The position numbers and the translations under genes are program-made. A stretch of 64,000 bases of DNA from Escherichia coli. Its GTDB lineage: Bacteria; Pseudomonadota; Gammaproteobacteria; Enterobacterales; Enterobacteriaceae. Where the stretch lies: assembly GCF_046105845.1 (NCBI RefSeq), contig NZ_CP151004.1; one strand, written 5' to 3'. Shown one piece after another: positions 34,514 to 35,085 of this stretch. The notes beneath the pieces are model-generated. The model made no database searches. It saw nothing but the letters and a program-made list of their open reading frames with translations, and was not told where the DNA came from. The first letter of the stretch is position 1. Every line of letters starts with the position of its first letter.

Positions 34514-34724
34514 GGTGGGCGATTCTAATTAGCCAACAGGATTCGCGCCACTCATTTTTCTATGCTTATATTTAGTTTTGCACCTTATTACTTCACTACG
34601 TGATCACTTTATTGATGGTTATTAAACCAATTACCAGCAAGAAGTGAAAAAACTGTGAGTAAGCGGGTGATAAATGGTAAAAGTCATCTTGCTATAACAA
34701 GGCTTGCAGTGGAATAATGAGGCC

Positions 34725-35085
34725 GTTTCCGTGTCCATCCTTGTTAAAACAAGAAATTTTACGGAATAACCCATTTTGCCCGACCGATCATCCACGCAGC
34801 AATGGCGTAAGACGTATTGATCTTTCAGGCAGTTAGCGGGCTGCGGGTTGCAGTCCTTACCGGTAGATGGAAATATTTCTGGAGAGTAATACCCAGTCTG
34901 TTTCTTTGATAATTGCGCTGTTTTTCCGCATGAAAAACGGGCAACCGACACTCTGCGCCTCTTTGAGCTGACGATAACCGTGAGGTTGGCGACGCGACTA
35001 GACACGAGGCCATCGGTTCACACCCGGAAAGGCGTTACTTTGCCCGCAGCTTAGTCGTCAATGTAAGAATAATGAGTAAGTTACG
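34725..35085 (+). promoter_or_regulatory. rne 5' untranslated leader (autoregulatory region), approximate extent
   Basis: 572-bp non-coding gap upstream of rne. K-12 rne is known to have a ~361-nt structured leader mediating RNase E autoregulation; extent placed by that knowledge, not read from sequence. Confidence 0.55.

Follow-up and report, generated by a model that had tools for sequence, protein, structure and literature searches.

A 124-codon minus-strand open reading frame (ORF) between the divergent genes rluC and rne, in a 64,000-nt stretch of Escherichia coli DNA (contig NZ_CP151004.1, hereafter the window), corresponds to yceQ of E. coli K-12 and is, with a probability that we put at roughly 93%, a chance open frame and no protein gene, the functions of the gap between the two genes all being non-coding. 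The original prediction had regarded this ORF as more likely a by-product of the rne leader than a gene, and this view was backed by tests of substitution pattern, stop avoidance, codon usage and frame conservation. The verdict of a chance ORF is already established in the published record on yceQ, from which the absence of translation is taken here. In the arrangement that we propose, the gap would act as a divergent control region with every function residing in non-coding elements, which from rluC to rne would be the promoter of a leaderless rluC, a spacer of variable sequence with a DnaA double box, the rne promoter P1 and a 361-nt structured leader (Table 1). The openness of the ORF in Escherichia, and in part in related genera, would then reflect purifying selection on the promoter and RNA nucleotides beneath it, with no protein involved.

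Table 1. Features of the rluC-rne region, in coordinates of the window.
Feature	Position	Strand	Basis or remark
rluC CDS (23S rRNA pseudouridine synthase)	33554..34513	-	319-aa ORF; annotated in K-12 and strain 503025; left edge of the gap
Putative rluC promoter block	34514..34575	-	Conservation, element spacing
rluC -10 TAGAAT	34522..34527	-	18-nt spacer of variable sequence and fixed length from GTGGCG
rluC -35-like GTGGCG	34546..34551	-	Preceded by an A-tract
Poorly conserved spacer	34576..34679	.	Contains the 3' end of the ORF and the DnaA double box
124-aa ORF (yceQ), GTG start	34631..35005	-	Judged a non-coding chance ORF
DnaA double box	34653..34674	minus-strand reading TTTATCACCCGCTTACTCACAG	Just upstream of rne P1, within the yceQ ORF
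rne P1 promoter: TTGCTA, 18-nt spacer, TG-extended AATAAT	34689..34718	+	Sigma-70-like scan, conservation
rne 5' untranslated leader, 361 nt	34725..35085	+	Rfam rne5, covariation
Second leader hairpin (hp2 in the literature)	34776..34832	+	Rfam alignment and consensus, MFE structure
rne CDS (RNase E)	35086..38271	+	1061-aa ORF; annotated as rne; right edge of the gap

The rluC and rne genes diverge from a gap of 572 bp (34514..35085), which in the annotation of strain 503025, colinear with the window, is the largest intergenic gap, followed by ycfP-ndh (399 bp) and fhuE-hinT (333 bp); by way of this annotation, the claim that the stretch upstream of rne is the longest non-coding one in the window was borne out. 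The only break in colinearity between the window and strain 503025 was a segment of about 90 unaligned nt at 44752..44844, in the flgF-flgG intergenic region. The further claim that the gap corresponds to the structured 5' untranslated region (UTR) of rne holds for 361 of the 572 bp (34725..35085) and fails for the other 211 bp, where the promoters of the two genes and a spacer of variable sequence are located.

Comparison across the order was made on 120 Enterobacterales loci, collected by a contig scan for the 19-mer found at 34796..34814. The order and spacing of rluC and rne were kept across Enterobacterales (median gap 572 bp, range 552-977, in 109 species), and conservation within the gap peaked in the leader, in P1 (34680..34724) and in the block adjacent to rluC (34514..34575), and was weak in 34576..34679. 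Within E. coli, the 801 bp around the ORF found a match in 5,425 of 5,426 complete genomes, with 5,397 at ≥99% identity; a single genome had no match to this control region, some genomes carried two copies of it, and five of the matches sat on records labelled plasmids.

On the plus strand, P1 was the only sigma-70-like site detected in 34400..35200 by a consensus scan, an insensitive one that also missed the rluC promoter, and it was almost invariant across the order. Its -10 element ends 7 nt before a match to the Rfam family rne5 (RF00040; 34725..35061, plus strand, 260.1 bits against a gathering score of 180, E=5.7e-82, model positions 1-333 of 333), and the transcription start predicted from P1 (~34725) is the first base of that match; a leader beginning there agrees with the published rne UTR length of 361 nt (PMC10989929). 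The match is separated by 24 nt from the rne ATG (35086), on the same strand, an arrangement common to 100 or more Enterobacterales loci. Using RNAalifold on sequences from 44 genera, we obtained 43 base pairs, 14 of them with compensatory changes on both sides; 97.9% of the cells were paired, against 29-41% when the partners were slid by 1-3 columns, and none of 500 shuffles reached the observed measures, the structure having been derived from the very alignment on which it was tested, which favours structure somewhat. The prediction of a structured leader was thus confirmed by the rne5 match and by covariation. Folding stability was set aside as evidence for the leader (z=-0.66 for the single-sequence MFE), the covariance model and covariation being used instead.

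The most conserved core of the leader (~34793..34816) lies in hp2. Invariance of 34796..34814 within our sample is given by construction, the 19-mer being the search pattern; the Rfam consensus independently shows conservation there. Compared with the archetype of the Rfam family, the leader in the window is the E. coli archetype itself, with nothing notable to distinguish it. Its autoregulatory character is reportedly the subject of Jain & Belasco 1995, Diwa et al. 2000 and Schuck et al. 2009. The leader is described as mediating RNase E-dependent feedback on the decay of rne mRNA (PMC10989929), and in the arrangement proposed here it would be through these 361 nt that RNase E controls the decay of its own message, as the literature has it.

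In several other Enterobacterales the leader carries an insert of about 127 nt in a variable internal hairpin, at the equivalent of ~34866. It was seen in Klebsiella oxytoca (locus L096, 8808..9268), Citrobacter and others, and also in loci L030, L034, L037, L049, L050, L056, L064, L067, L083, L089, L098 and L116, with inserts of other sizes in Kluyvera and in Enterobacter JUb54. Even with the insert, the leader scored 229 bits against rne5. A small mobile or palindromic element is one possible identity of the insert; its identification as an ERIC element was discarded, the two ERIC primer sequences giving no match within 4 mismatches.

On the other side of the gap, the elements of the rluC-adjacent block were at least 95% conserved across 92 Enterobacterales. 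TAGAAT is followed directly by the G+C-rich CGCCCACC and then by the rluC ATG, with no Shine-Dalgarno sequence, an organization kept in about 40 genera. The 8-nt G+C-rich discriminator presumably resembles that of rrnB P1 (TATAAT-GCGCCACC-A), a likeness that would suggest stringent or growth-rate control of rluC, a gene for rRNA modification. Judging from these sequence features, we infer that the conserved block would be a promoter that starts transcription at the rluC ATG; a published list of known leaderless E. coli genes includes rluC (PMC8794815). With rluC leaderless, no rluC 5' UTR runs through yceQ, and the simplest route to transcription of the ORF is removed. Upstream rne promoters, P2 and P3, were reportedly described by Ow et al. 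2002, and the rluC-adjacent block was considered as one of them; a leaderless rluC promoter fits better, the two readings not being exclusive. An RNA pairing of GTGGCG with CGCCCAC upstream of rluC was also considered and dropped, as it is not kept in Serratia or Citrobacter.

The variable spacer between the two conserved parts contains a DnaA double box that has the same sequence as a DnaA ChIP-seq site listed as '(yceQ) rne' (PMC11317965). This region was poorly conserved beyond close relatives, and a role of DnaA at 34653..34674 is taken from the literature.

Two alternatives attribute some product to the minus strand over the leader. Under the first, which we consider very unlikely, this strand yields a non-coding antisense RNA that forms a divergent excludon with rne and modulates RNase E expression, either by interfering with transcription or through cleavage by RNase III, the ORF being incidental. 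The divergent layout, with its ~572-bp spacing conserved across Enterobacterales, would suit such a system, and in the output of ExcludonFinder rne-yceQ is one of the 16 divergent excludons that recur in 50% or more of 58 E. coli RNA-seq samples (PMC12288877). However, this tool builds its transcripts outward from annotated CDSs, and an overlap between the rne UTR and the annotated yceQ is given by definition; the listing therefore offers no independent support for minus-strand RNA, and we rejected it as evidence of antisense transcription in view of how the tool defines transcripts. Divergent excludons, in which divergent genes have overlapping 5' UTRs, share with this locus a divergent pair and a long 5' UTR, whereas here the partner is a doubtful CDS and the real divergent neighbour, rluC, is leaderless, so that any overlap of true transcripts would be conjectural.

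Further evidence weighs against an excludon. No sigma-70-like site was detected on the minus strand in 34400..35200, by the scan whose insensitivity was such that it missed the rluC promoter too; the rluC mRNA starts at its own ATG; and the conservation of the region is fully accounted for by the plus-strand promoter and the RNA structure. It is very unlikely that the minus strand over the leader is transcribed in some condition to give an antisense RNA, or a short peptide of the conserved central block, that feeds into RNase E homeostasis. Were this true, the minus-strand product would be a second, trans- or interference-based layer on a textbook autoregulatory circuit.

The 124-aa ORF was present exactly where the original prediction had located it and overlies P1 together with the first 281 nt of the rne leader. 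The resemblance to yceQ noted in that prediction turned out to be identity: yceQ of K-12 MG1655 (b1085, NP_415603.2, 'DUF2655 domain-containing protein YceQ') sits at the same locus, and over the 124 codons the K-12 sequence translates identically to the window ORF. The two differ in the annotated extent, K-12 yceQ being given as 106 aa from an internal GTG at 34951 (34631..34951 in the window), whereas the window ORF begins at an upstream GTG. The sole nucleotide difference inside the ORF lies at 34632, and the stop codon is TAA in the window and TGA in K-12. Position 34632 is T in the window and C in K-12, in strain 503025 and in three other Escherichia loci compared. For the 441-bp region containing the ORF, no 100% full-length match in complete RefSeq E. 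coli was found among the matches listed. In strain 503025 the locus tags skip from RS05355 (rne) to RS05365 (rluC), which suggests that a feature between the two genes, plausibly yceQ, was annotated once and then withdrawn.

The second alternative, to which we give the smallest probability, is that yceQ is a genuine, young gene for a small protein, restricted to Escherichia, lying antisense to the promoter and leader of rne and expressed solely in conditions that have yet to be sampled. The length of the ORF is one point in its favour (P=0.022): when the gap was shuffled 5000 times with its dinucleotides preserved, 2.2% of the shuffles contained an ORF of 124 aa or more, and 7.3% one of 106 aa or more. 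This length exceeds chance only modestly, and in 50 kb of the neighbourhood there were 50 shadow ORFs, none of them a gene, that reached 100 aa. A young gene would also gain from the AGAGG that can be read in the sequence 6 nt upstream of the GTG at 34951, which could be a ribosome-binding site, and from the persistence of the RefSeq annotation of yceQ in K-12. Moreover, all 5425 matching E. coli genomes aligned over at least 80% of a 441-bp query containing the ORF, 5396 of them at ≥99% identity, both figures being at the nucleotide level; this intactness, however, is explained by the near-total nucleotide conservation within E. coli. Regarding transcription of such a gene, the consensus scan, insensitive as it is, gave no promoter-like site on the minus strand upstream of the ORF, and the leaderless state of rluC, downstream on the same strand, leaves no shared operon transcript from the known rluC start.

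Substitution patterns spoke directly against a protein gene. In pooled Nei-Gojobori comparisons, for which 91 species were each set against the window as single reference and kinship was ignored, pN/pS was 0.94 in the yceQ frame and 0.77-0.99 in the remaining five frames of the same DNA, so that the yceQ frame is indistinguishable from the others, while the true frames used as controls gave 0.12 (rluC N-terminus) and 0.04 (rne N-terminus). Substitutions creating a stop made up 34 of the 714 distinct ones observed in the ORF (4.8%) against 5.2% of those possible; the corresponding shares, observed versus possible, were 0.9% versus 3.5% in rluC and 0.5% versus 3.6% in rne. Stops are therefore not avoided in the yceQ frame, unlike in rluC and rne, and the conserved pattern of codon substitutions that would mark a gene was not seen in these pooled comparisons.

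The frame itself stays open in Escherichia and is broken outside it by frameshifts and stops. At 34705, within the P1 spacer, 73 of 91 Enterobacterales species have an A, which makes an in-frame yceQ stop, and E. coli and E. albertii have a G, so that the full-length ORF is an Escherichia-specific accident of one base, even if the lengthening of the frame in Escherichia by this G can also be counted for a young gene. Every genus examined outside Escherichia showed 1-nt indels and in-frame stops, with the exception of Enterobacter, which had frameshifting indels only; examples are a stop at 'HC*P' in Citrobacter, and a +1 at 34725 and a -1 at 34962 in Enterobacter. When the yceQ frame was anchored at hp2, its open run reached a median length of 68 codons over 109 species, compared with 8-32 for the other five frames, and the ends of the run varied from 2 to 115 codons on either side of the anchor. 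An excess of this kind is expected, because the choice fell on this frame for being open in E. coli and because conservation of the DNA beneath it is high; with its ends unconserved, frameshifts common and stops unavoided, we rejected the long open run as a sign of coding.

Codon usage and sequence identity led to the same reading of the ORF as a chance frame. Codon usage scored -0.29 bits per codon, worse than in every one of the 52 neighbouring genes (each at least -0.02), which tells against a protein gene, and within the range of the shadow ORFs (mean -0.20 for the 50 that reach 100 aa in this 50 kb). Identity between the window and E. albertii was 98.7% in the DNA of the ORF, 89.7% in rluC and 92.7% in the catalytic half of rne; the DNA of the ORF is more conserved than the flanking genes and thus has no relaxed synonymous sites. 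Constraint at every position of the ORF is what is expected of a promoter and a structured RNA, unlike coding DNA.

A natural disruption was found in strain Z22-2 (locus L125), which has an IS1 between rluC and rne at 34679/34680, a position that falls in the ORF, 9 nt upstream of the -35 hexamer of P1, with P1 and the leader intact. Published experiments are in line with this. Minus-strand ribosome footprints, proposed originally as a check on the ORF, have been looked for in print, and YceQ had no ribosome-profiling reads in three conditions (10.1101/038851). Transposon insertions in yceQ were recovered only where the promoter of the transposon can drive rne (10.1101/038851), TraDIS gave the same orientation bias of insertions, and the effects of CRISPRi at yceQ are explained by a block of rne transcription. 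A nonsense mutation at codon 8 of yceQ is viable (PMC10249474). A recoding of serine codons that is silent for yceQ proved impossible to introduce and upset the regulation of rne (PMC7614783; 10.1101/2025.03.09.641718). The absence of footprints in three conditions, and the tolerance of the codon-8 nonsense mutation, of IS1 and of transposon insertions, are thus all contrary to a protein gene, including a young one.

Databases no longer support such a gene either. Neither the window ORF nor K-12 YceQ had a match in Pfam-A (2025 copy) or NCBIfam release 20, which upholds the earlier statement that the ORF has no recognisable domain. The Pfam domain 'DUF2655' was accordingly dropped as a candidate, current Pfam and NCBIfam giving no match even for the K-12 protein, and the label persists solely as the K-12 RefSeq product name. 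No PGAP annotation lay beneath the ORF in any of 40 sampled RefSeq E. coli records (40/40), and the dropping of yceQ by both PGAP and Pfam counts against a protein gene. Among 5.8 billion proteins there were 32 relatives, all from Enterobacteriaceae, of 68-156 aa and with differing N- and C-termini; the one segment common to the 32 was a 28-letter stretch that is the antisense translation of the hp2 region.

The yceQ ORF was reportedly scored 'essential' in the Keio and PEC resources; it also stood in the way of recoding in synthetic-genome projects and gave rise to a Pfam DUF. All three, the essentiality score, the recoding block and the DUF, arose because the ORF overlies the promoter and leader of an essential gene. 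Similar cases are known at other loci. The phantom ORF yaaY, which reportedly falls within the 5' UTR of an essential neighbour and is compared here by description, is like yceQ at a different locus, and psrO, in the pnp promoter region, shares with yceQ its position in the control region of an essential gene, but is an sRNA gene and not an ORF. In yaaY, psrO and yceQ, apparent essentiality or intolerance of recoding comes from the regulatory element of the neighbouring essential gene (10.1101/2025.03.09.641718, among others). The main value of the present analysis lies in annotation hygiene, the understanding of RNase E regulation being unchanged. Phantom ORFs of this type can be recognised without expression data, from pN/pS compared with that of the flanks, stop avoidance, codon usage set beside that of shadow ORFs, and tracking of the frame across 100 or more species.

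Two minor observations concern the flanking genes. Just downstream of rluC, at 33500..33522 on the minus strand, there was a partial, sub-threshold match to a naRNA4/REP-like RNA (23 bits, E=0.28), cut by the boundary of the search, which is probably a REP element between rluC and yceF. Opposite the C-terminal half of rne there is a 560-aa antisense ORF (36577..38259, minus strand), accompanied by several further long out-of-frame ORFs over the gene; we regard all of them as shadow ORFs of a scaffold region that is repetitive and biased in composition.
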